DNA of 64,000 nt from Clostridia bacterium (GCA_017936585.1 JAGBFI010000038.1:46503-110502); one strand, 5' to 3'. Shown: positions 13,001-36,546, counted from the first letter of the stretch. Numbers and translations are program-made. Notes: a model not told the origin generated them from the letters alone.

Positions 13001-15074
13001 CATATCCAAATGACACCTCTCCAAGCACAAGCTGTTCTGCAACATAAAGCACTTTTTCAGCATGAGTTGTTGAAGAAATGTAGCGATTTACGTCGCCAGA
13101 AAGCGAATAGATTTTTACATAATAATATCCAACCTCAGAGAACTCATATTCCGTGCTTTCCACTTCACTTTCAACAAGTGTTGCAAGTGCGAATTCGTCC
13201 AGATTGATTGAATCTTTGTTTTGCTCATAGGTGGCCTTGTCAATCTCAAAAATTTGCACCTTATATTTCGCCGCATTTGAGATTTCTTCCCAAGAGATTT
13301 TCTTTTCAGTGCTGTCGCCACCAAGAATTTCAGAAGGAGCACTCAAAATCGATAAAGTCTTATCTTCAAGTGTGGAAGAACTGATTGAATAAAGGTCATT
13401 TTCGCCAGCCTTTGCCACAATCTGAAAATCAAAAGAAGTTCCTTCAAAGCCCAAATCTTCAATTCTACCAGCAAAGGTCGCCGTGCCAGCTTCCGCATCA
13501 ATCGTCATATTTTCAACTTTTTTATAAGTCGAATTTTTATTGACCCAAATCTCATAATCGGTTGCGTTTTCCACAGTGTCAAAAGTGAAAATAGACTTTG
13601 TTTGATCTTCACTGTAAGCATGAGCAATCTCACCAGAAACTGACGCAAGTTTTGTCACCTTCACAGTTTCAGACGCGTCACTATCAATCACCGTCACGCG
13701 TTCCCCAGAAATCAAATTCACAAGATTTCGCGCTTTTTGAACAACCTCAAGATCATAAACTTTTGCTTCATCAGGCAATGTCACATTCAATTTTCTTACT
13801 GTCACATCTTCGCTCAAACCATTGTATATTTCACCCAAAATTTCAAGTTCAGTTGCGATGAGTGATGAGCCTGCAACGCTCATTTTCACAATATTTCCGT
13901 TCGTCTCATTTCCGCCAAGACCGGTTAGAGTGACTTTCCCAAGTTTGTAGATTTTGCCAAAATTCAAAGCATCACTTTCAAAGAAAAGTCCGTTTTCATT
14001 CTTTGCAACAATTCGGGTTTCATAAACGCCACTTGCAAGCCCTTCCAAATTGGTTGAAATTTTCTCAGCGGTTTCAAGCGTCTTTGTTTCGGTTAAAGTT
14101 CCTGTCAGTTCAACAACAATATTTTCCGCATTTACAACTTGTCCAATCTCAAGTTTTCCATCAATTGATGTTGCCGTTGGTGTTGCAAGTTTTTCGATTT
14201 GCAAACTCTCGCTTGCAACTGGAAATTTGTAACTTGAAGAACTTGTCGAAGCATCTGTCACAATCACTCTCAATGTGTGTTTTCCTGCAGAAACACTCTT
14301 AAATTTTGAAGTCAAGTTTTTTGAATTTGCGCTCTGTGGAGAATCAAGCAAAATTCCATCAAACTCAACTTGATATTTTGCTCCAGCATGGGCTGTCCAA
14401 GAAAGTTCACTTCCGTTCCAATGCAAATCTTCCACTTTCAACTCGTCAATGATGAACCCATATTTGAAAGTTTGCTCTGCACTTGGCAAACTTTCAGAAA
14501 AATATCCTCTCGCACAAGCTTTCACTGTGATGTGATATTCCCCTTTTTCAAGTTGGAAACTGTTTGCGTTGCATGGCTCATTGATTGGTGTTATCACAGC
14601 TTTTGAAGGGTCTGTTTTTGAATATGTAATTTTTTTACCTTGAATCCAATAAGTAGCCGTTGTTGGCCCTGACTCGTTGCCGTAGAACGCCGAAACAGCA
14701 TCCCATGTCAACAACCCGCTTGCGTCAACCGAAAAATTCTTTGGAGTTTCAAATGGTTTTGTGACAACAAGCTCCATTGAATCGAGACTATTTCCCTCAT
14801 ATGTGGCATAAACAAAACTCTTTCCTGTCTTCTTTGCCTTCACACTTCTGCCAACAATGTCAAAAAGTGACGAGTCTGAAAAGTGATAAACAATTTCATT
14901 CTTCTCCACCGACTGAACAGAAAGATGATCGTCAAGGTTTAAACTTTCGCCAAAAGAAAGCGTAACCTCTGAAGAATCAAAAGTTGCTTCGACTTTTTTG
15001 AAAGAGCATGCCGCCAGCACGCTCGACAACACGATTGTCAACAAGGACATCAGAACAATGTTAAACTTTTTCAT
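4074..15074 (-). CDS. Giant (3,666 aa) surface lipoprotein with many FN3/Ig-like modules and a C-terminal GLUG-repeat module
   Basis: This is an uninterrupted 11-kb ORF. The start was chosen at the ATG at 15072-15074, which has an AAGGGG RBS, giving MKKFNIVLMSLLTIVLSSVLAAC (lipobox LAAC). FN3-like strand signatures recur, for example LLTWDAVSA, ELSWTAHAGAKYQV, ISWEEISNAAKYKVQIF and RLSWDAVTDATGYLLNMY. The last roughly 356 aa carry GLUG-like repeats such as SLVAGLVITNGGRIENV, YSGVVAINQGNNAIVTGC, VFVGGICYTNYATIENC and QIGGIVVTSTSSSILRNC. Confidence 0.85.
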   Translation of the reverse strand: MKKFNIVLMSLLTIVLSSVLAACSFKKVEATFDSSEVTLSFGESLNLDDHLSVQSVEKNEIVYHFSDSSLFDIVGRSVKAKKTGKSFVYATYEGNSLDSMELVVTKPFETPKNFSVDASGLLTWDAVSAFYGNESGPTTATYWIQGKKITYSKTDPSKAVITPINEPCNANSFQLEKGEYHITVKACARGYFSESLPSAEQTFKYGFIIDELKVEDLHWNGSELSWTAHAGAKYQVEFDGILLDSPQSANSKNLTSKFKSVSAGKHTLRVIVTDASTSSSSYKFPVASESLQIEKLATPTATSIDGKLEIGQVVNAENIVVELTGTLTETKTLETAEKISTNLEGLASGVYETRIVAKNENGLFFESDALNFGKIYKLGKVTLTGLGGNETNGNIVKMSVAGSSLIATELEILGEIYNGLSEDVTVRKLNVTLPDEAKVYDLEVVQKARNLVNLISGERVTVIDSDASETVKVTKLASVSGEIAHAYSEDQTKSIFTFDTVENATDYEIWVNKNSTYKKVENMTIDAEAGTATFAGRIEDLGFEGTSFDFQIVAKAGENDLYSISSSTLEDKTLSILSAPSEILGGDSTEKKISWEEISNAAKYKVQIFEIDKATYEQNKDSINLDEFALATLVESEVESTEYEFSEVGYYYVKIYSLSGDVNRYISSTTHAEKVLYVAEQLVLGEVSFGYDEAFKSEFTNASGYFLKIGNVDEIDSYDIEISTNNNFEKYAEDESIYLLTDDFSTVANIKIVGRSSDEILWLPTETYSLGVQRIAAVSSDDLLLAEDAKTLTVNAKTGVTRVVIRDGISQKVGVNGQPAVYDIPQQNVFILDFEQNGSVFDSATKTYEISNGMVYLDSRDSTFTFNRLTQPSDLRYENGKIKFTDNQVGDAEYFVLDVACVLPNGQTQNLSIRLANQVTVTYQGLSLPLGEQSNFVSTSSGEVTVNLDVIIALVKANPIISQYYSQSTKLLFSAYAYQNRFKDGVMQISSLYATTQKDVSATSLEIEKMKTTPLRYDAETNMLTWDAVSVDASVTAATNYTITSNAFDTAVQTSALAYDLSEINFDENKTFTFQISVTNANYLESNLSNSVEIYKLCAIDKVTLTNNSLTFTTAESKYDYVAVTFGNAEPVQNTTGSVEISEDGTYTLQLIGRTEEIKGTDENLTAIKYFLNSNVSTWTVADMETVKPENCVVDFDGNTISWNEFSSTLSVLEYVIVFEDKAGSVYTYVATNPASEVKDGETYYSVNIQTDAVLLENLSNLAAGDISIKLYAHIKPSYSVVANGTVYYHAENEAGFNYSPYNEGQTIKKLETPAIADVEFVYETDESSEDYLVEAKLPDIKVTFTGNYGAGVFKVYKNDLWIEGLSVTQEDDSYSFIITSDMYDNFVGAGETLKLSIRVVNEGDNASAIPSTAGSVEIVRANNLTSVEFVTNADGFVTHAVEMKFDEENVAQVLGGVVLKVDFTPAGGEAATKYVLAPNAGDATAGILTFDLTSFVDQNLAAGGTIKLSAFVNSYSNVEANTYYLVCPQYVQSSQLSVLKKVDNVTMQSGGFVVDNSLNSDNTIYTVICNDNDEMFILSKENDFTFRFPDDWANGTYSVIIFASEEGAISSASTTLDVKLSRIASITAVRVSRTSDTNEVRLSWDAVTDATGYLLNMYKDDELVYTFEASGNSYTLEQIFGNNYKSLTETGKISLVTLQNDMDVVFGVVTQGNSTANDSKEYRFNATIKGNSMQTSNIQVDEFGVLTFDSVAGNEYLYRFIAADGTILKTWNVVMATSEKTKIDTSSLEAGTSAFNLELIVKGSTDFDGETSSNNSNFVLDSAPYTTVGKVITLYKVEDIANVVRNEQISSDIAFEIVETFDKMFASSKADGILTGEAVEFVPEAYEEAYTFSLSTLIALLKESGIEITDSKIYFWQHKASEDSVFHVISKEYEFTFNYTITTEFVDVVKVGTNTGNANIEKDFINTFATFVNSDGGDTETIGMYARITQLSGFEGESGYAQTKYISKTTLLKNDYFGSSTFAINLTSLFEQDDLLSLYGEFKVEFSKVAVVGGVYALSPWEEAPQTFIRLNPVDDIALVNGSMRWTNDNEHAEKFLVFFVSTLENEVVMGSYFYHETERTTYDPTNYISTGHKYYLGVRSINSNPYILSSKIVYISNEDGAMQIYKNQISSPLKIESGAAYINWTKSGDFVSTLTSESGYSEIADLLASEVFVSPFTFSLQDLVDGNVKVRFKFTSTATGAQGLSKSFDVNAIDLLPNLYKFGIDNGLYNLEERLRNVYTNAQSTDVRRVISGLQQAIENGSYGVANSRLLFDKYFETLQTGEYALQYCLLGNNKSLTSGWYDYSNNNGENLIYVNSEPQVAVIREPDPDNDMITSYKVRMKKSEVYAYDATNGAVLQETNNYIMTLGGFTFALNTSSMTLTRMNVETATSVTVYEEDVSGTTYVYFYINYNGGDSLLGVYGDDIYLAKDENLTMKMEIFAVGNNFSMSSKSKQFSVTFLKIANMKIDKGVFSWDTDHNRMTSVYVQRTDGGAETEVKIDASKTTSIFSLEGKGAGIYTVKFIIKGEVRDNVVYIDSGIDQIDRIFKLEAPGMNNDNGFIGITSGNNATYLSYCYSSENLFAYNIYNENSISKGLSVDIFDTRSDKTLPLYYEVGVTGMDETKAGFDPVLYEYKLTEEFASVFYALSMGSTAELSFLQDPSEYYLTKITHDSGKNLAVRSEVTTFAASMLDSVKNVRIENGILKWDEVAGRGGDNPLAVPETEGTKVVYKITIEQYTSNLEDGKTSETTFNQCIKYTAENYFDFAVLKEGEVGYVEGSFIKATVQALTLNVSEEEIVGADQLVEGGWLYGNVQFVDSERYILMGNGSILKGIDRLKAVEADMIGVVEGKLTWDYVTSKDIATVEMFNNAYAFIVETEDGEEIAGQFEVTLKDDTAEDSNTFGIIFSENLGEMSVGTYNIVVFVTQGQDNPNKVIKSFGCATEITKLATVASEHFEIISDSQTETLSLEKYFANYPENSLVLSYGENQITLTKDTFKLFIVASEADIVNSYPAGYYAACLIVGEDDALALRFMATKAGTIFSDLSDDFVLKRSPWEAEQSISWDEEKQEFSWNYDYYSFSTKVEAEEKRYAYLATETVSLFNDSGLTESTQLLLEEGEEFEMIDTLEGTISVRIKYKEVMYYISRSAYEHKIVDVLDEDGNTVVETMDGSSLFKVVEEVGEYSIVESEGRYFKVQSSAIVTPTFYVEATYANNVGGNVETISVRTYTTQDRVFRPTIVCNSISLVVRVKLNNASIQSKELVFDGSVAFNLFASGDGTSMNPYVIENADQFRNIAYRQTKDDMLVEFVEQTTIGSTVVTNTNMEESKYYFIITKDLDLGEIDGILFKGEFTGVIDGLQDNTTNTVIAYTSTGVTALSSSVTIRAEDSNVNTSTPAVPLNFKRGSAIFENLNSSAIIKNIDIDATYGNSLVDIKNHSLVAGLVITNGGRIENVNLTGFRNNFVGNISTTERTIMAYSGVVAINQGNNAIVTGCQLSTSMSLDDSGSSQLVFVGGICYTNYATIENCVASTEGGGQTISVNCQEGSSAIQIGGIVVTSTSSSILRNCTNNMNISATSSVSGNSIVAYIAGVADRVSGSFSDLSSTGVIATVGLNVSNITKSDLIAVIL

Positions 15075-15447
15075 ACAAACCCCTTTAAAACAGAATTTGG
15101 TCATCGCATAGTGTTCAATTATCTCAAGAGTTTTTCACTGAAAAAAAACTCTCCCAATATCTCACATTTATTTTAACACTTAAAGGGGGAATTTATCAAA
15201 TAAAAAACAAAGAAAAAATATTTTTAATATATATTTTATATATAAAATCCAGCGAACAAAAATAAAAAAATCGATTTTTGGGTGCTGAAAAATAAAAAAA
15301 TATTTCTTTGTACCTAATTTATGGGTGTATAGAAAATTTTAAAAATCAGAAAAAGAAAATAAAAAACACTAAAAAATGCAAATTTTTAATAAAAAAAATA
15401 AGTTTTTTATTTAATTTTAAATCATTTTTTGAATTTATTAAATATTT

Positions 15448-22400: not shown

Positions 22401-25400
22401 TTATCCATCAATTTCCCATGCAAGTTTTGGATATGAATTTTGAGCAAAACGCCAAATTTCTTCGTCAAACTGAACGCCTGAATTATAATATTCACCAGCT
22501 TTCAAACTGAAGCAATCTCTCGCCTCCGCCCAAGTGTCAGGCTTTTGCGAAATGAGAGTGGAAGCATTTGTGAAACAATTTTCAATTCTGCCATTTGAGA
22601 CGCCGGCCAGCCCGCCGAAAGAATAATTTCCCAAAACCTCCAAAATTGCATAGCTGTGATTCACGGTTTTTGATGTTTCCGCATTTTCATATGTGCCATA
22701 AAGTCCACCAATCATGCCCTTTCCGGTCATTGTTGAAAGGTCAATCGTGCCATTGAAATAGTTGTTTTCGCTTTTTGCTCTACCATTTCCAACAAGCCCA
22801 CCAACAACAAATTCATCAGCGGTGCCGCTTAAAACAATTCTTGCATTTGTTGCATTTTGTGAAATGTCCAACGATTTATGTGCACCTAAGTTCCCCGCAA
22901 GCCCGCCGGCAACAATCTTTTCCGCACCATTTGATGTGATTGAAATTTTTGCTCTGTTGTCATTTTTGACAATTGAACCTTGCCCTTTCCCACCAGATAT
23001 TTGTCCGGCAATTCCGCCAATTTTCAAATTTTCACCACTTGTGATGATGTTTATTTCAAGCAAGTTGATGCAATTTTCAATCTTGCCGCCAGCATTTTCA
23101 GCCACAACTCCGCCCAATGTCAGGCTTTGACTCGTTTCAAATGAAAGTTTACCTCTGACAATGCAGCCGACAATTTCTCCTGAATTATATCTTGCAATCG
23201 CACCAAACGCTGTCAAATTTGAATAGTTTTTTTCTTGCAAAACAAACTCAACATCTTTGATACTTCCGCAGTTCTTTGCAAAAAATCCGCCACTCTGAGC
23301 ATTGATATTTGTCAGCCTATACCCCTTGCCATCAAGTTGTCCCGTGAAAAGACTCCCTTGCCAAGACTCTCCTTCCATATCGATGTCATTTTCCAGCACA
23401 AAGTTTGAATATTTTGCATTTGAAAGCAGAACTTTCAATTCGTTTGAATTTTTGATTCCCATTTCCTGAGGAATAAGATAGAACGACAGCACAAAAAGCA
23501 CCAAGTTGAGCATGCCTACCCCAAATAATGTTAAAAAAACTGACTTCCAACCTTTGGAGATTTTGCTTTTTTGAATGAAATACAGCGTGAAATTGAGCAT
23601 TCCAATCACAACTGAATAAATCAATGTAACAATCAAAAACTCTTGACTGAAATACATATACACTTCTTTTGGCATAAACAATGATATTGTCAAAAGCAAC
23701 GTTGTGAAAAGAAGTGGGAAAAATTGCAGGAAAATCGTCAAAAATCTCTTCAAAAACTTGTCTTTTTTGATTGTTTTCACTTTGTTGTCATATTCAGGCT
23801 GAGTTTCCTCGCTTGTCTTGTAAACACCGGACAAGTCTTTGCCAACTCCCGTCACAGCAATTGCATTGACGGATGTGTCAAGCGACAAATCCAAAGCGGA
23901 CAATCTGACTTTTGCTTTTTCAGAAATCTCGCAGAAACTTTCAAACTTTTTGATTTTTTCAAGAGATTTAATGTATTTCTTGAAAGGCTCAAGTTGAAGT
24001 CGATAATAATCCAGGCCCTTCTTTGCTTCAAGCCCGTATTCCTTTTCAATTTCAAGCAGAATTTGCTCGTTTCGCAAAACAAAATCTTTTAATTTTGATT
24101 TCAAAGAAATCAAGTCAAGCAAATCATCCACAAACTCTTTGCGCTCGCCCTTAAACAGATTTGATTTGCTGACAATTCCGGCATAAACTTCATCCTCTTC
24201 GTCAGACGAAAGTTCAAGCAAAGTTTCCCACTCTGGCATTTGCGTCACTTTCACCCTAGACATGATGAGGTCATTGTCTGTTTTGCAATGTGCCTTGATT
24301 TTGATCAGCTGCCAATAAAGCGGCCCATTTGTCTTGTCTTTTGAGATAGCAATCGCGAGATATTTTTCCGCTTGCTTGAAAAAGCCCATATCCTGAAAGC
24401 TGTCTGCAATTTGTTTTGCAATCGCCGAAAGTTCTGGCTCTAAGTTGACATAAGAAAGATAAAAATCTAACTGCTCTTCAGCTTTGTTTAAATCCAAAAA
24501 TGCAACCGGCAAAATCAAAGAAGCAACTGTGGAAATGTATTGTGCGCGCGAACTTTCGTTGAGATATTTGAAAACCTCTTGCAGTTCCTCGTGATTTCTG
24601 TATGTCAATTTGTCTTCATCTGTTTTGAAATTTCGAAGAAGAAGGGTAATGTTACTTTGATTATGCCCCGGGTCAAGCTCCAAAATTTTCTTGTAATATT
24701 GCTTATCATCACTGCGCTGAGCCAGTGCAAAATAGAAAGAAATGAATCTGTCAACATCGTTTTTGTCAAAACACTTCAAAACTTTTTCGATCAAAGAATC
24801 GTCCAGAGTTTCAATCGCTTTGCTTTCTGCTTTTGAAACAAAATTTTCACGATTTGGAGAATTGTAGCCCGCCAAATACACCAAAAATGTTTCATAATAT
24901 TCTTCACTATCAAGACCTTCAACCAGTTTTTCCCATCTGTCAACAAAGTCCTCAGCGAAACTCTTTGATGCATATTTCAAAATCATGTCGATCTTTTCTT
25001 TGTCCTTGAAATTGGAAATATTTTGGAAAAATTCTTCTTGCGTTTTGATTTGCTTGTCTGCCAACATCTCAGCAAACAAAATCTCTGCATTGTATGGGTC
25101 TTTTTCAAGCAAATCTTTTGTGAATTCCTTTGCTGAAGCAAAATCACCATTTTTCAATGTCAAATAAATCCACTTGATTTTTGTTTCATCATTCAGATTG
25201 ATGTTGTCAACATCATAGTTTCCAAGGTCAGCCGGAACAACTGTGTCCAAGTCGACATAGGTTCGCTTGTCCGGTTCCACACTTTCCACTTTGACAGTGG
25301 AAATTTTCGCTTCTTGTTTGGTTGTTTTTTGCTTTTGATTTTCAACCATAACTTCCAAATCTTGCAAAAATGAAATTGTCCCCGCCTCAATAACGCTTTT

Positions 25401-26183
25401 GCAAGACGCCAAATCCTTTGGCAAATCCGAAAGTTGCACTTCGTCAAGAATAACAATTGCACTTGTCTTGGCTTTTTTCTTTTGCTTTATGAAATAAAAA
25501 TATCTGTCCAACAAAAATCTATATTCGTTGAACCCTTCCTTACTTGATGCCACAAGCAGCAAAACCTTGCTTGTCTGCAATGCTTGAAAAACATCCTCTT
25601 CCTTCACGCGTGGAGTTTGATGGTGGAGCGAAAACACAGAATTTTTTTCTGAAAGCTTTGCATAGATTTCGTCCACTTTTTCTTTTGCTTTTTCATATGC
25701 AACCGCACACAAAATGATGTCATATGTGCTTTTTGATGCTTTATCCTCGTGTAATTTTTTGATTTTTTCAACACGCTTTGCAATGTCTGTGTACGTTTTT
25801 GCAACCTCTGGAGGGGCAAACTTTGTTGCTTTTTGAAAGTCCACATCCTCACTCAAATTGCAAATTTGGTCAGAGAAAAAATTAGGCTTGTTCCTTGAGC
25901 CTCTTTTGTTGTTATAAAGAACAATTCTGTTCTTCGCAAGAGCCTTGCCAAAATGTGCTTCAAACGATTTTGGATAGAGTGCAATGATTTTGTCAAACTC
26001 CTCAACGGCATCATCAAACTGCATTTGACGCAAAATTTCATATGCACCAACCGTGAGGACTTCTTCCTCTTTTGAGGCGTGTTCGTCCACATACAAAGTC
26101 CCGCAGAACTTGCATTTAACCATGTTCTGCCCGACAACTTTATATTCTCGTCCTCCACAATTTTTACAAACACGCTCTCTCAT
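22401..26183 (-). CDS. 1,260-aa multidomain membrane protein with N-terminal Zn-ribbon, TPR-like repeats, a TIR-like alpha/beta module, three TM helices and an extracytoplasmic GLUG-repeat domain
   Basis: The N-terminus has CKNCGG...CKFCG. Long helical repeat regions follow. The TM cluster is LTIFLQFFPLLFTTLLLTISLF, FLIVTLIYSVVIGMLNFTLYFI and VFLTLFGVGMLNLVLFVLSFYLI. The C-terminal repeats include LGGVVAENAGGKIENC, IGGIAGQISGG, VAGGLAGNLG, VVGGLVGNG, MIGGLYGTYEN and FGGLAGVSNGRIENC. It has an AAGGAAA RBS and starts 8 nt after the ATPase gene. Confidence 0.8.
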   Translation of the reverse strand: MRERVCKNCGGREYKVVGQNMVKCKFCGTLYVDEHASKEEEVLTVGAYEILRQMQFDDAVEEFDKIIALYPKSFEAHFGKALAKNRIVLYNNKRGSRNKPNFFSDQICNLSEDVDFQKATKFAPPEVAKTYTDIAKRVEKIKKLHEDKASKSTYDIILCAVAYEKAKEKVDEIYAKLSEKNSVFSLHHQTPRVKEEDVFQALQTSKVLLLVASSKEGFNEYRFLLDRYFYFIKQKKKAKTSAIVILDEVQLSDLPKDLASCKSVIEAGTISFLQDLEVMVENQKQKTTKQEAKISTVKVESVEPDKRTYVDLDTVVPADLGNYDVDNINLNDETKIKWIYLTLKNGDFASAKEFTKDLLEKDPYNAEILFAEMLADKQIKTQEEFFQNISNFKDKEKIDMILKYASKSFAEDFVDRWEKLVEGLDSEEYYETFLVYLAGYNSPNRENFVSKAESKAIETLDDSLIEKVLKCFDKNDVDRFISFYFALAQRSDDKQYYKKILELDPGHNQSNITLLLRNFKTDEDKLTYRNHEELQEVFKYLNESSRAQYISTVASLILPVAFLDLNKAEEQLDFYLSYVNLEPELSAIAKQIADSFQDMGFFKQAEKYLAIAISKDKTNGPLYWQLIKIKAHCKTDNDLIMSRVKVTQMPEWETLLELSSDEEDEVYAGIVSKSNLFKGERKEFVDDLLDLISLKSKLKDFVLRNEQILLEIEKEYGLEAKKGLDYYRLQLEPFKKYIKSLEKIKKFESFCEISEKAKVRLSALDLSLDTSVNAIAVTGVGKDLSGVYKTSEETQPEYDNKVKTIKKDKFLKRFLTIFLQFFPLLFTTLLLTISLFMPKEVYMYFSQEFLIVTLIYSVVIGMLNFTLYFIQKSKISKGWKSVFLTLFGVGMLNLVLFVLSFYLIPQEMGIKNSNELKVLLSNAKYSNFVLENDIDMEGESWQGSLFTGQLDGKGYRLTNINAQSGGFFAKNCGSIKDVEFVLQEKNYSNLTAFGAIARYNSGEIVGCIVRGKLSFETSQSLTLGGVVAENAGGKIENCINLLEINIITSGENLKIGGIAGQISGGKGQGSIVKNDNRAKISITSNGAEKIVAGGLAGNLGAHKSLDISQNATNARIVLSGTADEFVVGGLVGNGRAKSENNYFNGTIDLSTMTGKGMIGGLYGTYENAETSKTVNHSYAILEVLGNYSFGGLAGVSNGRIENCFTNASTLISQKPDTWAEARDCFSLKAGEYYNSGVQFDEEIWRFAQNSYPKLAWEIDG

Positions 26184-26191
26184 AGTTTTCC

Positions 26192-27340
26192 TTAATTTTG
26201 ATTTGTTGTCTTTTTGTTTTTCTTTATGTAACTGCTAATTTCAGTATTGTAGGCTTCAAAACTTGAAATCTCTTTTTCTGTCACACTTGGTGGCATGCTG
26301 TCTAAAACTCTGTCAAAATCCTCATTCGTCACAAGCACAACTTTGTCCGTTGCAATTGCCTGAAGAAGAGGCTCATCCTTGGCACGGTCACAAAGTTCTT
26401 CAATGTCCGCACCGCTGTAGTTCTCCGTTTGAGCCACAATTCTGTCAATATTGAAGTCTTTGGCAACTGGCACTCTCTTCATATTTTTCTCAAGCATATA
26501 TTTTCTTGCCGCAGCATCAGGCAAAGGAAGATAAATCTTCTGAGAAAATCTACCCGAACGCATTGCCGCACTGTCAATATCCCAAGGTCTGTTTGTTGCC
26601 CCAAGCAAAAGCAGATTTGGATTTCTTCCGGCAAAGCCGTCAATTTGTTGCAAAAATTCGTTCACACGCTTGTCATTGTGAGTGTCAAGCCCACGTTTGC
26701 CAATCAAACTGTCCATTTCGTCAATGAAGATGATGGCACGGTCTTGCTTGTTTGCTTCTTCAAAAAGTGAGTTGATATTTTTCTCGCTGTCGCCCACCCA
26801 TTTGCTGACAATATCTGAGCCTTTGACTGCATAAAACTTTGCGCCGACCTCATTTGCAATTGCCTTTGCAATCATGGTCTTTCCTGTTCCTGGAGGGCCA
26901 TACAAAAGCACGCCGCCACCAGTTTTTTTGCCATACATTTTGTATTTTTCAGGATATTTCACAGGGTTTATCATCTTGATTGTGATGGCTTTTTTCACGT
27001 CTTCAAGTCCCGCAACATCATTGAATGTGATTTTTGGGATTTCCGCTGTTTGCCATTTTTTGAGAGTCTCGTCCTTTTCCTCTTCCACATCGCTCTTTTT
27101 GTCGATTTTTGCAGGCTTCTTGCCCAAGTTGTCCGCAATGTCAACAAGTTTGCGCGCCCTTTCCATGCGAACTTCTTTCAACTTCCCTTTGCTGCGAACA
27201 GCAATCTGCATCATTGTTTCACTTGCAAGCAAGAAATTACGCTTTGCAAGCGCCAAATTTCCTCTCTCTTTCGCTTCTTTACCTTTTTTCATGTAAAGTT
27301 CAAAAGTGTCCGACAAAATTGTGATGTTGTTTTCTGACAT
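26192..27340 (-). CDS. MIT-domain AAA+ ATPase, Vps4/CdvC-like
   Basis: The ATG at 27338-27340 has a GGAGAGGG RBS. The N-terminal roughly 75 aa (ELYMKKGKEAKERGNLALAKRNFLLASETMMQIAVRSKGKLKEVRMERARKLVDIADNL) follow the MIT three-helix pattern. A single AAA cassette follows, with Walker A GPPGTGKT, SKWVGDSEK, Walker B IIFIDEMD and SRH ATNRPWDIDSAAMRSGRF. The C-terminal segment DFDRVLDSMPPSVTEKEISSFEAY resembles the Vps4 C-terminal helix region. Confidence 0.75.
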   Translation of the reverse strand: MSENNITILSDTFELYMKKGKEAKERGNLALAKRNFLLASETMMQIAVRSKGKLKEVRMERARKLVDIADNLGKKPAKIDKKSDVEEEKDETLKKWQTAEIPKITFNDVAGLEDVKKAITIKMINPVKYPEKYKMYGKKTGGGVLLYGPPGTGKTMIAKAIANEVGAKFYAVKGSDIVSKWVGDSEKNINSLFEEANKQDRAIIFIDEMDSLIGKRGLDTHNDKRVNEFLQQIDGFAGRNPNLLLLGATNRPWDIDSAAMRSGRFSQKIYLPLPDAAARKYMLEKNMKRVPVAKDFNIDRIVAQTENYSGADIEELCDRAKDEPLLQAIATDKVVLVTNEDFDRVLDSMPPSVTEKEISSFEAYNTEISSYIKKNKKTTNQN

Positions 27341-27382
27341 ACCCTCTCCGTTTTTCAAATTATGCCTTCCTCAGGCAAAAAA

Positions 27383-27982
27383 TTATTTGTCTGCGTCTGC
27401 TTCGATTTTTTTTCTGAGTTCTTCCATTTCTTTTTCGATGCTTTCTGTTGAAAGTTCGTCTTGCGTTGCTTGCTCCATGATGAATTTTTCAAGTTCTTCA
27501 TCGCTCATTTGCTTGCCACTCTTGTCTTTGCCAGCGTTATAGAATGTTTCTTGGCTCATTTCCATGAAGTTGTCCATTTGGTCTGTTTGAGTTTCAACTG
27601 CCACCATAGCTTCCTCAAACTGAGCTTGAATTTTTGCAAATTCTTTTGCATCAGCAAGCTTTGTCATTTCCTTTGAAATGTCACTCATTCCACGCAAGAA
27701 CTCGCTTGTCATCATTGTCACATCTTTCATTTGAGCAGTGATTTCAAAGTTGAGAAGCATCTCCTGTGCACGCTTTTGTTGTTGAACAGTCATCTTATAT
27801 CCAGAAAGAGCCAAGTTGAATTGTGTGTCCAAATCCTTAAGTTTCGCTCTTTTTGCGGCTTCAATAAACACCTTTTTTTGTTCTTCCAAGCGGTTGATTT
27901 GCTTGTTCATTGTGTTGATTGTTCTTTTAATCAACATCTTCTTCTCGATTTCTTTTTGTTGTTTAGATTTAAAAAGTCCCAT
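27383..27982 (-). CDS. ESCRT-III (Snf7/CHMP-family)-like protein, paralogue B (199 aa)
   Basis: It starts MGLFKSKQQKEIEKK, followed by a basic helical hairpin and then an acidic C-terminal half. The segment MTSEFLRGMSDISKEMTKLADAKEFAKIQAQFEEAMVAVETQTDQMDNFME parallels the alpha3-alpha5 region of CHMP2/3-type proteins. The C-terminal amphipathic tail is SIEKEMEELRKKIEADADK. It has a GGAGGA RBS. Confidence 0.65.
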   Translation of the reverse strand: MGLFKSKQQKEIEKKMLIKRTINTMNKQINRLEEQKKVFIEAAKRAKLKDLDTQFNLALSGYKMTVQQQKRAQEMLLNFEITAQMKDVTMMTSEFLRGMSDISKEMTKLADAKEFAKIQAQFEEAMVAVETQTDQMDNFMEMSQETFYNAGKDKSGKQMSDEELEKFIMEQATQDELSTESIEKEMEELRKKIEADADK

Positions 27983-27986
27983 TTTA

Positions 27987-28598
27987 TCATTCCTCCATCT
28001 TCATTTTTTTCTTTTTGATTGGTTCTTCTTTTTCAACATCTTGCATCAATTCGTTTTCTTCTGCAAGTTGACTCTCTTTTTCAAACATTGTCAAAATTTC
28101 TTCCTCATTCTTGCCAATTCCATAAATTGGTTGATTGAGGTCATATGCCGATTGCACCTCTGTGAAAAGTTCGTCCGCGTTAGTGAGCACATCTTCTGAA
28201 GCCACCCTTGTTACCAAAGCTTTGTTCAAGAATTTTGCCAAGCCACGCTGGTCTTGCAAAAGCTCGCTGAGCGGAACCTTTGTTTGAGTTTTATAGAACG
28301 CGTTGCTGTCATATGCTTCTTTCAACTTGTTCATAAGCCTGATGTTGTAAAGCAAATACATCCCTCTTTCCATGCAAGTCTGTTTTTCTTCGTGTAGATG
28401 AGAAATCTTCTTTGCATAGAAAAGTTGAAGTTCTTTGTTCTTCTCTTTCTTCCCCTTTTCCATGAGCGCATCAATTTCTTTCAGCTTTTGATAGACTTCC
28501 GCTTCCACCGTACGCTCTTGTCTTTCAAGTTCGCAAATGGAATTGACCAAATCCTCTCTGTTTATTTTCTTAAATTTGTTACGTCTAAATGGCCACAT
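27987..28598 (-). CDS. ESCRT-III (Snf7/CHMP-family)-like protein, paralogue A (203 aa)
   Basis: It has an AAGGAG RBS. The basic N-terminus is MWPFRRNKFKKINRED. A long coiled-coil hairpin follows (ELERQERTVEAEVYQKLKEIDALMEKGKKEKNKELQLFYAKKISHLHEEK...), then an acidic C-terminal region ending EEPIKKKKMKMEE. The overall layout is Snf7/CHMP4/CdvB-like. Confidence 0.55.
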   Translation of the reverse strand: MWPFRRNKFKKINREDLVNSICELERQERTVEAEVYQKLKEIDALMEKGKKEKNKELQLFYAKKISHLHEEKQTCMERGMYLLYNIRLMNKLKEAYDSNAFYKTQTKVPLSELLQDQRGLAKFLNKALVTRVASEDVLTNADELFTEVQSAYDLNQPIYGIGKNEEEILTMFEKESQLAEENELMQDVEKEEPIKKKKMKMEE

Positions 28599-28609: not shown

Positions 28610-28969
28610 TTAATAATTATCCCCTTCGTTTATTTTGTAAATTCGCTCAAGCAAATTGTCATATTTTTTTCTCAGTGTTTCATCCGCAAGTTCCAGTGCT
28701 TTCTGACATTCAGGCAAATATATCGCGCTTTTATATTTCACCGGATTTGAAAACAACTCGTCCTCATTTGACATCTCAAATTTGACAAGCATCTGCCCCC
28801 AATAGGCATCCGCACATTTTTCGTCATATTGAGCCGCAAGCAGAAAGTTCAGTTTTGCTTGCTCAAAAAAGCCGTCCGTCAAATTCAGATATCCAAGCTT
28901 GAGTTCTTTCAAAACCCTTTCCGCCACCTCCGCAGGCAGCCCTTGCGATGTTTGATAAGTTCTTTTCAT
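28610..28969 (-). CDS. Small (119 aa) helical TPR-like protein
   Basis: The start overlaps the upstream stop (TGATG). The sequence GFFEQAKLNFLLAAQYDEKCADAYWGQMLVK is TPR-hairpin-like. It resembles residues about 55-85 of the 1,260-aa protein in the same operon. Confidence 0.5.
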   Translation of the reverse strand: MKRTYQTSQGLPAEVAERVLKELKLGYLNLTDGFFEQAKLNFLLAAQYDEKCADAYWGQMLVKFEMSNEDELFSNPVKYKSAIYLPECQKALELADETLRKKYDNLLERIYKINEGDNY

Positions 28970-29376
28970 CAGGCTTGTTCTTCCTTCTTTCTTTGAACTA
29001 TGTATGCTTCCACCTCTTCAAGCATCCTAAAGCACGTCTCTTGAGTGTTGTCTTTTGCCACAACAATCTTCAAATCGTCCAATTTGTTGGCAATTTTGCT
29101 GTCCACCAAAAGGGCTTTTTGATTTGTTGTTGGATTGAAAAATCTGATGTTGTCCTTCACTTCCACAAGTCTACGGCAAAGTTCATCATTGCCGTTGGCA
29201 TAAACGATGACGCTTTCAACATTTGCAACCATGTTTTCGATTGACTTTTTGTTTTTAAGAACTCCCTTTGATCCCCCATTCGCCTCGTCTCGTGGTTTTT
29301 TGATGTATTCTCTGCAAATGTAGTACACTGCAAATCCCACCACTGCCAAAATGATAATCACATATAAAGCAACCAT
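28969..29376 (-). CDS. Small (135 aa) N-terminally anchored membrane protein
   Basis: It has a strong AAGGAGGA RBS. The N-terminal TM segment is MVALYVIIILAVVGFAVYYI, followed by a basic stretch and a soluble domain of about 100 aa. I recognise no family. Confidence 0.6.
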   Translation of the reverse strand: MVALYVIIILAVVGFAVYYICREYIKKPRDEANGGSKGVLKNKKSIENMVANVESVIVYANGNDELCRRLVEVKDNIRFFNPTTNQKALLVDSKIANKLDDLKIVVAKDNTQETCFRMLEEVEAYIVQRKKEEQA

Positions 29377-29385
29377 AATTCCTCC

Positions 29386-30213
29386 TTAAAGTTTTTCGCC
29401 ACATTTGCTGCAGAACAGCGCATCATCCGCATTTTTCGCAAAGCACTTTGGGCATTTGTTTCCAATTTTCACTTTCATTCCGCACTTGTTGCAAAACTTT
29501 GCATCTTCTGGCAAGCTTGCGCCGCATCCTCTGCACACAAAGCTTTGAGATTTTTTCATGTTTTTGTATGCATTGTTAAGTTTCGCATAGTCCTGCTCAT
29601 CAATGATAATGTTTGCAATGTTGAAAGAAAAAACCGCAATTCCATATTCACTTTGAAGCTTGTGACTGAGTGCCGTCAGCACTTTTTGTGACATCTCTTT
29701 TTTGCAAACTGCAATTTGATTGAAAAGAACTCTATTTTCTTTGATATAGTCCACAATGACCGTTTCCATCACGGACACGACATTCGACTGCAACCTTTCT
29801 TGCAATGCGTCCGCAGTGAGGTCTTCTGATGCGCCGACAAGATAAAGAAAACTCTTTCTTGGGTCGCCAATCTGCACCTCGAAATCACCGCTGAAGTCGC
29901 AATAATAGTTTTCTTGAAGTTGCTCATCATACATCAAAAGCATTTGAGGCGTTCCCCAAAGCATTTTGAGTTTTGCCGTCTTGGACATGAAAAGAACTTC
30001 CAAAATTGCGTCAACCTCTTCTTTTGTATCCACAAATGCGGAAAGTTGAAATTTTCCTGACGACAAAGTTTGAAGCATCTGCCCATCCTTGATCACAATG
30101 GCGTTGTGAGTTTCAGGCACGATGAGTGTCTTTTTGAAATCGGCTGACTCAAGTTTCACTCTTGAGAATAAGTTGTCATTGTTTCCGCTAAATTTAATTA
30201 TATTTTGTTCCAT
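29386..30213 (-). CDS. SPFH/band-7-like protein with a C-terminal double zinc ribbon (YdjI / COG4260-like)
   Basis: The ATG at 30211-30213 has a GGAG RBS. The body resembles the YdjI / 'virion core protein'-type SPFH family (IVPETHNAIVIKDGQMLQTLSSGKF..., ...EYGIAVFSFNIANIIIDE). The C-terminus is FVCRGCGASLPEDAKFCNKCGMKVKIGNKCPKCFAKNADDALFCSKCG, which is four CxxC pairs forming two zinc ribbons. Confidence 0.65.
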   Translation of the reverse strand: MEQNIIKFSGNNDNLFSRVKLESADFKKTLIVPETHNAIVIKDGQMLQTLSSGKFQLSAFVDTKEEVDAILEVLFMSKTAKLKMLWGTPQMLLMYDEQLQENYYCDFSGDFEVQIGDPRKSFLYLVGASEDLTADALQERLQSNVVSVMETVIVDYIKENRVLFNQIAVCKKEMSQKVLTALSHKLQSEYGIAVFSFNIANIIIDEQDYAKLNNAYKNMKKSQSFVCRGCGASLPEDAKFCNKCGMKVKIGNKCPKCFAKNADDALFCSKCGEKL

Positions 30214-30255
30214 CAAAACTCCATGGGAAGTCAAGATATAAATTCCCTTAGTTGA

Positions 30256-30284
30256 ATTTTAACAAAATAAATGTCAAAAGTCAA
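30256..30284 (-). promoter_or_regulatory. Putative sigma-A promoter of the ESCRT-like operon
   Basis: The minus-strand read is TTGACT (30284-30279), a 17-nt spacer, then TAAAAT (30261-30256). It lies about 45 nt upstream of the first ATG of the operon. Confidence 0.5.
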
Positions 30285-35271: not shown

Positions 35272-36546
35272 TTAATTTGCTTGTTTTTCTGGAGTATATA
35301 AAATCACAGTAGAACCTTGCACGAAATCGGCATCTTCTGAACTTGCAGATTTGCCATCCATTTTTGTCCCCTTATAATAATTGTTTTCAAAATTATAACT
35401 TACCGTTCCTGTTAAAGCTCCAGTAACAATCCATTGCTCATAACAATTTGAAATATTGTTGTTTTTAACCACAATTTCAACATCTGTACACTTGCCAATT
35501 CTCATTGCTCTTTGTCCATCTATTGCATAATTACCACCTTCAATATAGGACCCAATAACATTTGAAATAGAGTTGTCTTCTATAACAATTTTACCAGAAA
35601 CAAAGCAAGTCGCCGCACTGTGAGATTGAATTGCAATAGCGTTGTGAGATGTGTTTGCTATTTTGTTGTTTTTTACTGTTACATTTTTTGCGTTATATGT
35701 CAAAACTCCTTGGAAATGACCGTCAACTTCACAATCTTCTACAACTATGTTGTTATAAACATTAAATTCCCCCCTAAAACACATTGCTGCAATTGTATTT
35801 GCTTCTTCTGTTGTAAAGTTACAATTTTTTATTGTTATGCCATCAGCTGAGGAATCTGCAATTGCAAAATATAAATTAATTAAAGCTTGTTTGCCAGAAA
35901 AGTTCAAATTTTCAAATGACAAATTTTCTACAGAAATATGTGGATAGTGGGAATTGTTTGTTGTAGGATTTAATATTTCTCTAACTTGATCGTATTTAAC
36001 AAAACCATAAGTATGAGTGCTGCCGTAAACATGTGTTGAATTTAACATTATGCTGTCTGTAAATGTTACACCATCCTCTCCAACAATTTTAACATTCTCA
36101 AACTTTCTAAAATAGTGATAAGGAACATCTGGATGTTCTAAAACATAATCCAATGTTACAGAATCTCCAACTTGCAAATCTGGAGAAGTTCCACCTAAAT
36201 AGTTATGTTTAAAGAAAGTGGAAGTTGTTTTTGAAGGTCTTAATTGTAATTGACCATACGTTCCCTCTTTTAAAACTACAACTTTGTTGTTTACTTCACC
36301 ATCCAAAACTGTTTGAGCAGTGACAGGATCTGCAACAACTGCGTTTTCTATCAAAGTAAGCTCTGTTTCTGTTCCACAATCACATTTGGTGTAAGTATAT
36401 GCTTTTTCTTGTGAATCCACAGTTTTAACTACATAATGTGTTGTGTACGTATGTGTGTGAGGTGGTTCTCCGCAAGCAGTTAAACCAAACAAACCTGCAA
36501 GTATTGTTCCAATCATAACTCCTGCTAAAATTTTGTTCTTTTTCAT
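35272..36546 (-). CDS. Lipoprotein with right-handed parallel beta-helix repeats
   Basis: The signal and lipobox are MKKNKILAGVMIGTILAGLFGLTAC. Beta-helix rungs repeat as ITIKNCNFTT, VVEDCEVDG, VTVKNNKIANTSHNAIAIQ, IVIEDNSISN and VVKNNNISN. Confidence 0.75.
   Translation of the reverse strand: MKKNKILAGVMIGTILAGLFGLTACGEPPHTHTYTTHYVVKTVDSQEKAYTYTKCDCGTETELTLIENAVVADPVTAQTVLDGEVNNKVVVLKEGTYGQLQLRPSKTTSTFFKHNYLGGTSPDLQVGDSVTLDYVLEHPDVPYHYFRKFENVKIVGEDGVTFTDSIMLNSTHVYGSTHTYGFVKYDQVREILNPTTNNSHYPHISVENLSFENLNFSGKQALINLYFAIADSSADGITIKNCNFTTEEANTIAAMCFRGEFNVYNNIVVEDCEVDGHFQGVLTYNAKNVTVKNNKIANTSHNAIAIQSHSAATCFVSGKIVIEDNSISNVIGSYIEGGNYAIDGQRAMRIGKCTDVEIVVKNNNISNCYEQWIVTGALTGTVSYNFENNYYKGTKMDGKSASSEDADFVQGSTVILYTPEKQAN

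Follow-up and report, generated by a model that had tools for sequence, protein, structure and literature searches.

A Predicted Membrane-Spanning Protein with a Putative TIR-Derived Domain Encoded beside ESCRT-III-, Vps4-, and SPFH-Like Genes in Gut Clostridia

The Locus and Its Genes

The window analysed here is a stretch of 64,000 nucleotides (nt), one strand, from a Clostridia bacterium (GCA_017936585.1 JAGBFI010000038.1:46503-110502). Its element of interest is an open reading frame (ORF) at 22401-26183 on the minus strand, which runs from ATG to stop and encodes a protein of 1,260 amino acids (aa). This protein is called the TPR-GLUG protein below, after its tetratricopeptide repeats (TPR) and its C-terminal GLUG-type beta-helix; an identical copy exists in public data under the name [quoted passage not shown]. 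Sequence comparison traces it to a large bacterial family of TIR proteins shaped like Toll-like receptors, of which it would be a branch without catalytic activity. Its gene is the seventh and final one of a same-strand run with intergenic gaps of 0-24 nt. An initial annotation of the window had described it as the last gene of an operon and as 1,260 aa long, and both the ORF check and the seven-gene run bear this out.

From the first gene to the last, the operon encodes an SPFH protein with a zinc ribbon, a 135-aa protein with a transmembrane (TM) helix, three proteins of 119, 203, and 199 aa, an AAA ATPase, and the TPR-GLUG protein. The features upstream of the latter are as follows:

30256-30284, minus strand: promoter-like site 5′ of the operon, recognized by its match to the consensus alone (TTGACT-17-TAAAAT, extended -10 TG, 10/12 matches)
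29386-30234, minus strand: SPFH (Band_7_1) protein ending in a double zinc ribbon, operon gene 1 (Pfam Band_7_1 1.2e-13, Zn_Ribbon_1, and DZR)
28969-29376, minus strand: 135-aa protein with an N-terminal TM helix (translation; kept in the operon across the clade)
28610-28969, minus strand: 119-aa protein (p119), which consists of the AYWG/TPR module of the TPR-GLUG protein as a separate copy (hhalign)
27987-28598, minus strand: 203-aa helical protein (72-87% identity across the clade)
27383-27982, minus strand: Snf7-type ESCRT-III protein of 199 aa (family profile against CHMP2A and CHMP3)
26192-27358, minus strand: Vps4/CdvC-like AAA ATPase of 388 aa (Pfam AAA and AAA_lid_3; alignment to the NCBIfam CdvC model)

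A Pfam search with the 135-aa protein gave no match. The start codon of the TPR-GLUG gene lies 8 nt past the stop codon of the ATPase gene, and the sequence AAGGA, 7 nt before this start codon, overlaps that stop. The 8-nt gap and the overlapping ribosome-binding site suggest that the TPR-GLUG protein is probably cotranslated with the ATPase. Downstream follows a gene of 154 aa, which is considered to lie outside the operon unit because it has a different location in related genomes.

Domain Architecture of the Cytoplasmic Part

The initial annotation had proposed modelling the N-terminal part with AlphaFold. Two AlphaFold2 (AF2) models, one for each half of the protein, were built from alignments of 90-96 homologues. 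The model of residues 1-810, with a predicted local distance difference test score (pLDDT) of 85.8, gave the domain map of the cytoplasmic part; the model of residues 790-1260 reached a pLDDT of 96.4 and a predicted template modelling score of 0.92. The domains are listed from the N-terminus:

26085-26183, minus strand: zinc ribbon, residues 1-33, with C6, C9, C24, and C27 (Cys conservation, AF2 strands)
25743-26084, minus strand: TPR pair, beta-hairpin, and two helices, forming copy 1 of the "AYWG" module, residues 34-147 (Pfam TPR_14, AF2, hhalign)
25314-25736, minus strand: putative TIR-derived alpha/beta domain without the catalytic Glu, residues 150-290 (AF2, hhalign to the TIR region of the parent family)
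25197-25313, minus strand: flexible linker, residues 291-329 (AF2)
24144-25196, minus strand: all-helical TPR-like array with copies 2 and 3 of the AYWG module, residues 330-680 (AF2, Foldseek, p119 profile)
23748-24131, minus strand: long helical hairpin (residues 691-763) and juxtamembrane helices, residues 685-812 (AF2; Lys-rich stretch before TM1)
23469-23747, minus strand: three TM helices, residues 813-905, predicted N-in/C-out (hydropathy, AF2, charge bias)
22404-23468, minus strand: predicted extracytoplasmic GLUG-type beta-helix, residues 906-1260, 355 aa (AF2 pLDDT 96, profile, Foldseek)

The N-terminal CxxC...CxxC zinc ribbon, already recognized in the initial annotation, has its Cys residues conserved across 96 sequences in the pattern C6-x2-C9…C24-x2-C27, the second pair being invariant and both residues of the first pair present in at least 90%. 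AF2 places three short strands at residues 14-32 of this ribbon. Among 93 full-length orthologues, the regional mean identity is highest in the zinc ribbon (89%), reaches 56-57% in the TPR parts, and falls to 35% in the pseudo-TIR domain and 34% in the ectodomain.

Membership in the TPR group is indicated by Pfam TPR_14, which scores 30.6 bits at residues 51-81 (cut-off 23.5) and is the sole Pfam match above threshold, and by the AF2 helical arrays at residues 34-84 and 330-680. The top Foldseek neighbours of the helical array are all TPR superhelices (APC/C subunits, OGT, and CTPR), with E values of about 1e-5 and low TM scores. The initial annotation had assigned about 850 aa to TPR-like repeats. 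This holds for the module at 34-147 and the array at 330-680; the assigned stretch also takes in the alpha/beta domain at 150-290, a linker, and a coiled-coil hairpin, to which the description does not apply. In the AF2 model, residues 287-329 have no regular secondary structure, with pLDDT below 50 at 324-329, and the helices of the hairpin and of the juxtamembrane part span residues 691-742, 747-763, 774-786, and 791-807.

The module that makes up the 119-aa operon protein occurs three times in the TPR-GLUG protein. By hhalign, the p119 profile matches residues 600-675 with a probability of 97.2% (E 4e-11), residues 51-144 with 94.9%, and residues 340-408 with 76%. The TPR-GLUG protein is regarded as belonging to the operon system because the same operon carries a paralogue of its own repeat.

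No homology to the known ESCRT adaptor families (CdvA, ESCRT-I/II, Bro1/ALIX, and adaptin-appendage) was detected, the Pfam and NCBIfam searches with the TPR-GLUG protein returning TPR matches only. A profile search of the PDB gave TPR proteins and IgA1 protease, with no known ESCRT adaptor domain. An MIT-like domain was considered at residues 709-774 and rejected, as the match to the Sulfolobus MIT domain 2v6y reached only E 0.39; likewise, hhalign of the N-terminus of the ATPase against the TPR-GLUG protein and against p119 gave probabilities below 13% for MIT homology. The likeness of the protein to ESCRT membrane adaptors is proposed to be one of function and not of family membership.

The Putative TIR-Derived Domain and Its Parent Family

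Five strands alternating with helices appear at residues 156-286, in the AF2 model only. A direct TIR match was found neither in Pfam (E<=10) nor in the PDB, using a profile of residues 148-292 from 27 orthologues. The relationship emerges from distant homologues of 858 aa (P0100) and 1,395 aa (P0101), which are annotated with Pfam TIR_2. P0100 clears the gathering score of this model (35.9 bits, residues 154-280), and by BLASTP it is colinear with the TPR-GLUG protein over residues 6-712 (E 4e-41). When the profile of residues 148-292 was compared with the TIR region of 121 P0100-family proteins, hhalign returned a probability of 99.3% (E 3e-20); the TIR homology is transitive and runs via this TIR_2-positive parent family.

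The parent family and the clade of the window differ at the active site. In the parent motif W-I-K-N-E-W, the Glu (E238) is invariant in a 29-sequence alignment (A5), and the catalytic motif "WxKNEW" is kept in 78/78 parent-family ORFs scored. The counterpart in the clade of the window reads "…E-I-K-N-L-x-D-R-Y", with L, F, or I in the position of the Glu. The TPR-GLUG protein is without the catalytic Glu of an enzymatic, NADase-type TIR domain. Together with the ectodomain (34%), residues 150-290 (35%) are the least conserved part of the protein. They are read here as a domain of TIR origin in which the enzyme function has been lost and constraint has become relaxed. The domain was overlooked in the initial annotation and changes the family assignment of the protein.

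A search with P0100 retrieved more than 1,061 parent-family clusters, which have in common an N-terminal module of about 700 aa and vary at their C-termini. The latter are absent in some members and in others consist of BspA-type LRR_5, RCC1, or Listeria-Bacteroides (Flg_new) repeats, with ectodomains of up to about 2,800 aa. Where the C-terminal domain is large, the number of TM segments is odd (one or three). Parent-family proteins in the gut Bacillota loci L085, L087, L088, and L081 measure 2,800 to more than 3,700 aa and combine a cytoplasmic zinc ribbon, TPR, and catalytic TIR with one TM helix and a repeat-rich ectodomain, in a layout in the style of Toll-like receptors. The protein of L085 (10001-20572; 3,524 aa) has one TM segment at residue 914, followed by 13 LRR_5 and 13 Flg_new repeats, and is encoded beside SPFH, Snf7-like, and ATPase genes.

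This family, with a zinc ribbon, TPR, TIR, TPR, and TM arrangement and swappable ectodomains, is apparently undescribed so far. No description of a zinc-ribbon-TPR-TIR-TM family, or of its linkage to Snf7-like, Vps4-like, and SPFH genes, was found in the searchable literature, which in itself is no proof of absence.

Membrane Topology and Ectodomain

Hydropathy places hydrophobic segments at about residues 813-839, 847-871, and 879-903, which AF2 models as helices, and three TM segments are found in 98/99 homologues. The mean number of Lys and Arg residues (K+R) is 5.2 in the 15 residues before TM1, 1.1 in the loop between TM1 and TM2, 5.0 in the loop between TM2 and TM3, and 1.4 in the 15 residues after TM3. 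An N-in/C-out topology is predicted because of this distribution, following the positive-inside rule. The three TM helices and the placing of the C-terminus opposite the N-terminus, as given in the initial annotation, agree with hydropathy, AF2, and charge bias. The same annotation had pointed out that an even number of TM helices would make the GLUG part cytoplasmic; the count is odd, and the GLUG domain is predicted to be extracytoplasmic. Within the membrane part, P823 of TM1 is invariant, at least 90% of the sequences keep N893 of TM3, and conservation extends to the short outer loop "PKEVYxYF". These conserved residues suggest a specific helix bundle and not a mere anchor.

The C-terminal part of about 355 aa had been assigned to the GLUG type from its repeats, and profile, AF2, and Foldseek results all confirm this. 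The family profile of the ectodomain matches the beta-helix of the Streptococcus pneumoniae IgA1 protease (E 1e-14) and the Bacteroides protein 3n6z (E 1e-13). The best Foldseek matches are 6xja, 7uvl, and 6xjb, followed by the SRRP adhesin of L. reuteri; all matches to polysaccharide lyases and tailspikes have E>0.4. Profile homology to IgA1 protease, the AF2 fold, and Foldseek together place the ectodomain among the GLUG (PF07581) beta-helices. Hidden Markov model (HMM) searches for TPR and Glug had been suggested at the outset: the former gave the TPR_14 match described above, and the latter stayed below threshold on the TPR-GLUG protein alone (17.4 bits, cut-off 20.5), several orthologues being annotated with PF07581.

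In the model, the beta-helix starts about 4 residues past TM3. Such a position implies that it would lie on the outer face of the membrane, beneath the wall in a monoderm, and would not form a distal head. The initial picture of a surface-exposed GLUG head is retained as far as the extracytoplasmic location is concerned and is given up for the protruding head.

ESCRT-III-Like Proteins and ATPase of the Operon

The initial annotation had taken the partner genes to be ESCRT-like. This is supported for the 199-aa protein, which is of the Snf7 type, and for the ATPase, which aligns end to end with the CdvC model; it is not supported for the 203-aa protein, for which no link to Snf7 was found.

Alone, the 199-aa protein had no Snf7 match in Pfam, NCBIfam, or single-sequence PDB searches. 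An exhaustive HMMER search of 1.84 billion representatives yielded 314 related clusters, from which a 60-sequence profile (A4) was derived. The family profile matches human CHMP2A (7zcg_B) at 1.1e-7 and CHMP3 (2gd5) at 7e-4, with weaker matches to CHMP1B and CdvB, and 30/60 members of the family match Pfam Snf7, the best at 9.6e-7. Because of these matches, the 199-aa protein is assigned by homology to the Snf7/CHMP type of ESCRT-III, and not to PspA. Neither the Pfam nor the profile searches gave a PspA match for the protein or its family, so that, despite the Band_7_1 and DZR protein of the operon, a PspA-SPFH system of the ydjFGHI type is not indicated. In distant relatives of the 199-aa protein, the Snf7-like part is fused to other domains: to a RuvB-like AAA domain and a NERD nuclease in P0387 (800 aa) and P0453 (782 aa), and to an FtsK/SpoIIIE domain in P0409.

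The 203-aa protein has a size and an N-terminus similar to those of the 199-aa protein and might be another subunit of the ESCRT-III-like kind.

The ATPase has a clear classical AAA domain (Pfam AAA 2.9e-42) and lid (AAA_lid_3). Residues 15-372 align with positions 7-366 of the 370 of the NCBIfam CdvC model (E 2e-61), at 208 bits against an equivalog cut-off of 650, and Vps4_C stays below threshold (19.4 versus 21.3 bits). The protein falls in the classical AAA clade, where its best PDB matches are to the D2 domain of Cdc48/p97, an unfoldase. On these alignments, "Vps4/CdvC-like" seems a reasonable name.

Linkage within the Clade and in the Parent Family

The initial annotation had made its proposal dependent on whether homologues of the gene are linked to the ATPase and ESCRT-III-like genes in other genomes. 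Such linkage is kept within the clade and recurs in the parent family. The clade was scanned with one genome per species, which gave 57 loci, all from uncultured gut Clostridia that carry the submitter labels Candidatus Caccovivens, Christensenella, Catabacter, and others. The seven genes are present in the same order in every one of these loci whose contig extends upstream. Identity to the window amounts to 74-95% for the 199-aa ESCRT-III protein, 72-87% for the 203-aa protein, 70-89% for the ATPase, and 33-52% for the TPR-GLUG protein. Synteny in the Caccovivens-like clade extends further, to bPH_2, YabP/YabQ, and the giant lipoprotein described below. Because this broader synteny is kept too, the linkage within the clade may, taken alone, be a matter of inheritance.

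The decisive evidence for linkage is that of the parent family and not that of the clade. A metagenome scan with the 29-sequence alignment recovered 80 parent-family loci, whose flanks were annotated with HMMs of the operon proteins of the window and of the Snf7-like family. Removal of duplicates at 80% identity and a required flank of at least 3.5 kb left 29 clusters. An SPFH gene lies on the same strand within 8 kb in 22 of them; a Snf7-like and/or Vps4-like neighbour occurs in 11/29, all three gene types in 8/29, and none of the three in 4/29. Two gene orders are found, SPFH … E3 - TIR protein - AAA and E3 - AAA - TIR protein. The ATPases of the parent loci align with that of the window over residues of about 10-370, with 36-40% identity.

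Some loci deserve separate description. Next to the TIR-bearing protein P0181, a 564-aa Band_7_1 gene (L066:10541-12235) starts 20 nt after it, with no ESCRT-III or ATPase gene nearby. A divergent second version of the operon is present in L106:700-13933 (and in L107), where the 199-aa protein and the ATPase are 64% and 62% identical to those of the window. In L106, a 932-aa TIR-family gene lies between two small helical genes, and a gene further downstream encodes a TIR-family protein of 1,316 aa that has TPRs and, towards its C-terminus, six TM segments.

Proposed Role and Alternative Explanations

We propose, with moderate confidence, that the seven genes encode a bacterial ESCRT-III/Vps4/SPFH module in which the TPR-GLUG protein is the adaptor or receptor subunit anchored in the membrane. 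Its contacts with the other subunits and the direction of signalling are inferences. The zinc ribbon and the TPR surfaces, which are the best conserved parts, would keep the SPFH scaffold, the ESCRT-III subunits, or both in place at a defined patch of membrane, and the Vps4-like ATPase would then remodel the ESCRT-III polymer there. The ectodomain would bind the wall or an external ligand and would either mark the location of the patch, in the sense of outside-in sensing, or be itself the cargo of the patch. Given the loss of the TIR enzyme in the clade of the window, the protein would serve there as a scaffold only.

Several observations weigh against this role. The TPR-GLUG protein diverges much faster than the ESCRT-III-like proteins and the ATPase, a pattern not usually seen in an obligate structural partner. 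Of the 99 homologue clusters, 4 have no ectodomain (P0090-92 and P0099) and end 1-14 residues from TM3. In one of these, P0090 (L063:8001-10721, in a 196-kb contig), the six upstream operon genes are intact and pyruvate formate-lyase is next, 162 nt downstream. Because forms ending after TM3 keep the operon intact, the ectodomain is dispensable for the core function. In the parent family, the commonest neighbour is SPFH alone, and P0100, P0101, P0168, and P0183 are without any such neighbour. The partner proteins add two negative results: hhalign of the 203-aa protein against the Snf7-like profile gave a probability of 7.7%, which leaves a second ESCRT-III protein unconfirmed, and the N-terminal 97 aa of the ATPase, searched alone, had no MIT match in the PDB.

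The protein might be not an adaptor but a cargo or substrate, in which case the ESCRT-III polymer would sort such adhesin-like membrane proteins into vesicles to be shed, or the ATPase would extract them and turn them over, and the N-terminal zinc ribbon and TPR part would be the recognition handle. The parent-family ectodomains, which reach about 2,800 aa and carry LRR_5 and Flg_new adhesin repeats, would suit such a cargo; so would a variable ectodomain joined to a protein whose N-terminal 33 residues are its most conserved part, as well as an ATPase whose best PDB matches are to an unfoldase. However, the forms without an ectodomain keep the operon, so a large surface cargo is not required, and a conserved cytoplasmic platform of 700 aa together with the strictly conserved TIR active site of the parent family exceeds a sorting tag. 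This explanation is considered unlikely. An equally low probability is given to a sensor function in an immune or conflict system, where an outside ligand such as phage, a competitor, or wall damage would activate the TIR NADase of the parent family, and ESCRT-III, Vps4, and SPFH would limit or repair the membrane damage or shed the engaged receptor; the version in the window would then be derived, with the remodelling arm kept and the enzymatic arm lost. The unbroken conservation of the catalytic motif in the scored parent-family ORFs speaks for it, as does an arrangement of ectodomain, TM part, and cytoplasmic TIR with swapped ectodomains, as is often the mark of receptors exposed to diversifying pressure; the ectodomain is also the fastest-evolving part. 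Conversely, the PADLOC-DB 2.0 models match neither the TPR-GLUG protein nor P0100 nor P0181, the inspected neighbourhoods contain housekeeping genes and no defence islands, and the clade of the window is without the catalytic Glu, yet strong purifying selection acts on its operon across 57 species. In the same database, the small operon proteins are also without a match, and the ATPase has only generic AAA similarity (IetA and TRIP13). An immune or signalling origin is plausible, given the strictly conserved TIR active site of the parent family.

A further explanation is that the linkage is inherited synteny only and that an unrelated TPR membrane protein happens to be encoded downstream of ESCRT-like genes. 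The syntenic wider neighbourhood in the Caccovivens-like clade and the faster divergence of the TPR-GLUG protein compared with its neighbours agree with it. Nonetheless, the distant parent family (about 24% identity) shows the association again, in other gene orders and on unrelated contigs; moreover, the operon carries a paralogue of the module of the TPR-GLUG protein, and the 8-nt gap with the overlapping ribosome-binding site suggests cotranslation with the ATPase gene. Mere synteny is accordingly held to be very improbable.

Beyond the adaptor or receptor role in the clade of the window, a wider system may be envisaged, though as a tentative idea that falls short of being probable. In gut Bacillota, TIR proteins shaped like Toll-like receptors would be widely wired to Snf7-type ESCRT-III, a Vps4-like ATPase, and SPFH, and surface events would be converted into NAD-based signalling and ATP-driven scission or repair, the protein of the window being a dead-TIR scaffold of this system. 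If so, a bacterial ESCRT-III/Vps4 machine would have a surface receptor of its own.

Other Proteins of the Window

A giant predicted lipoprotein of 3,676 aa is encoded at 4074-15104 on the minus strand, with the lipobox LAAC (signal …SSVLAAC). Related genomes keep it in synteny with the operon, and its best Pfam match is only at E 0.078 (ChitinaseA_N), far under the cut-off. The C-terminal 300 aa have GLUG-like "G.I.NC" rungs, and the initial annotation had concluded that the same module caps both this lipoprotein and the TPR-GLUG protein. The resemblance stays at the level of the motif and is not supported by BLASTP or HMM comparison. BLASTP gave a best E of 0.78, an HMM of the beta-helix of the TPR-GLUG protein had no other match in the window at E<=10 (hmmsearch), and hhalign aligned a single 41-aa repeat with 78% probability. 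It was also considered whether the lipoprotein is a split-off ectodomain of the parent family; this was rejected, as no BLASTP similarity to ORFs of more than 1,500 aa in parent-family loci was found.

Another beta-helix surface protein in the same window is indicated at 35272-36546 (minus strand), a predicted lipoprotein of 424 aa (…GLTAC) that the public gene call annotates, weakly, as Beta_helix. The 665-aa protein at 39433-41430 (plus strand) has two N-terminal hydrophobic segments and the Walker A motif GTTASGKSS. By eye it resembles the coupling protein of type IV secretion, and there may be a conjugative element further along the window.

Comparison with Known Systems

According to a 2025 review (PMC7619361), a Vps4-like ATPase "appears absent in bacteria". 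In the clade described here, which comprises at least 57 species of gut Clostridia, a Snf7-type ESCRT-III gene and a CdvC-like ATPase gene belong to an operon that is strongly conserved and whose membrane-spanning component is the TPR-GLUG protein. This bears on how bacterial ESCRT-III polymers are targeted to a site, and on what TIR domains do when they are tethered to the membrane from inside, below a domain that binds at the surface. The main advance lies in the ancestry of the TPR-GLUG protein and in the breadth of the ESCRT-III/Vps4/SPFH association beyond the clade.

Among the closest published systems is that of Ravi et al. (2024, mSystems, PMC11237479), who reported a bacterial Vps4-like AAA ATPase, said to be transferred from archaea, beside a "TPR + 6TM" protein, "suggesting membrane proximal action". 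Both systems pair a Vps4-like ATPase with a TPR membrane protein. There, snf7 is described as displaced by the TPR-6TM gene, whereas here a Snf7-type ESCRT-III gene is present, SPFH is part of the operon, and the TPR protein joins a zinc ribbon and a TIR-derived domain to three TM helices and a GLUG ectodomain. The 1,316-aa protein of L106 may correspond to their "TPR + 6TM" partner.

In the ydjFGHI operon of Bacillus subtilis, PspA is encoded with the SPFH protein YdjI, and SPFH is required for PspA at the membrane (Scholz et al. 2021, PMC8581546; PMC11237479). Both this operon and the present one are Firmicute combinations of an ESCRT-III-superfamily protein, a Band-7/SPFH-zinc-ribbon protein, and small membrane or zinc-ribbon partners. 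They differ in that the ESCRT-III protein is here Snf7/CHMP-like and a Vps4-like ATPase is present, and the TPR-TM-GLUG protein has no ydj counterpart.

Makarova et al. (2024, mBio, PMC10936438) described archaeal "Meth_adaptin" Vps4/ESCRT-III loci with an SPFH, coiled-coil, and zinc-ribbon protein. The adaptors of these loci have a cytoplasmic adaptor domain, a TM linker, and, outside, a cargo-type GOLD domain (PMC10936438). The logic is common to them and to the TPR-GLUG protein: an adaptor inside, a TM part, and a binding domain outside. However, the former are archaeal and use an adaptin appendage and GOLD, in contrast to zinc ribbon, TPR, pseudo-TIR, and GLUG, and no homology was detected between them.

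With the IgA1 metalloproteases of Gram-positives (6xja, 6xjb, and 7uvl) and with 3n6z, the ectodomain has both homology (profile E 1e-14) and fold in common. It differs from the proteases in that the protein has no protease domain and the beta-helix is fused directly to a TM helix.

The parent family resembles Toll-like receptors and IL-1R in having a repeat-rich ectodomain, often of leucine-rich repeats (LRR), one or more TM helices, and a cytoplasmic TIR domain. Unlike in Toll-like receptors, the order is reversed, with the TIR N-terminal and the ectodomain C-terminal; the LRRs are of the BspA type, and the enzyme-type Glu is kept in the parent family and lost in the TPR-GLUG protein. No common descent of the architecture is implied.

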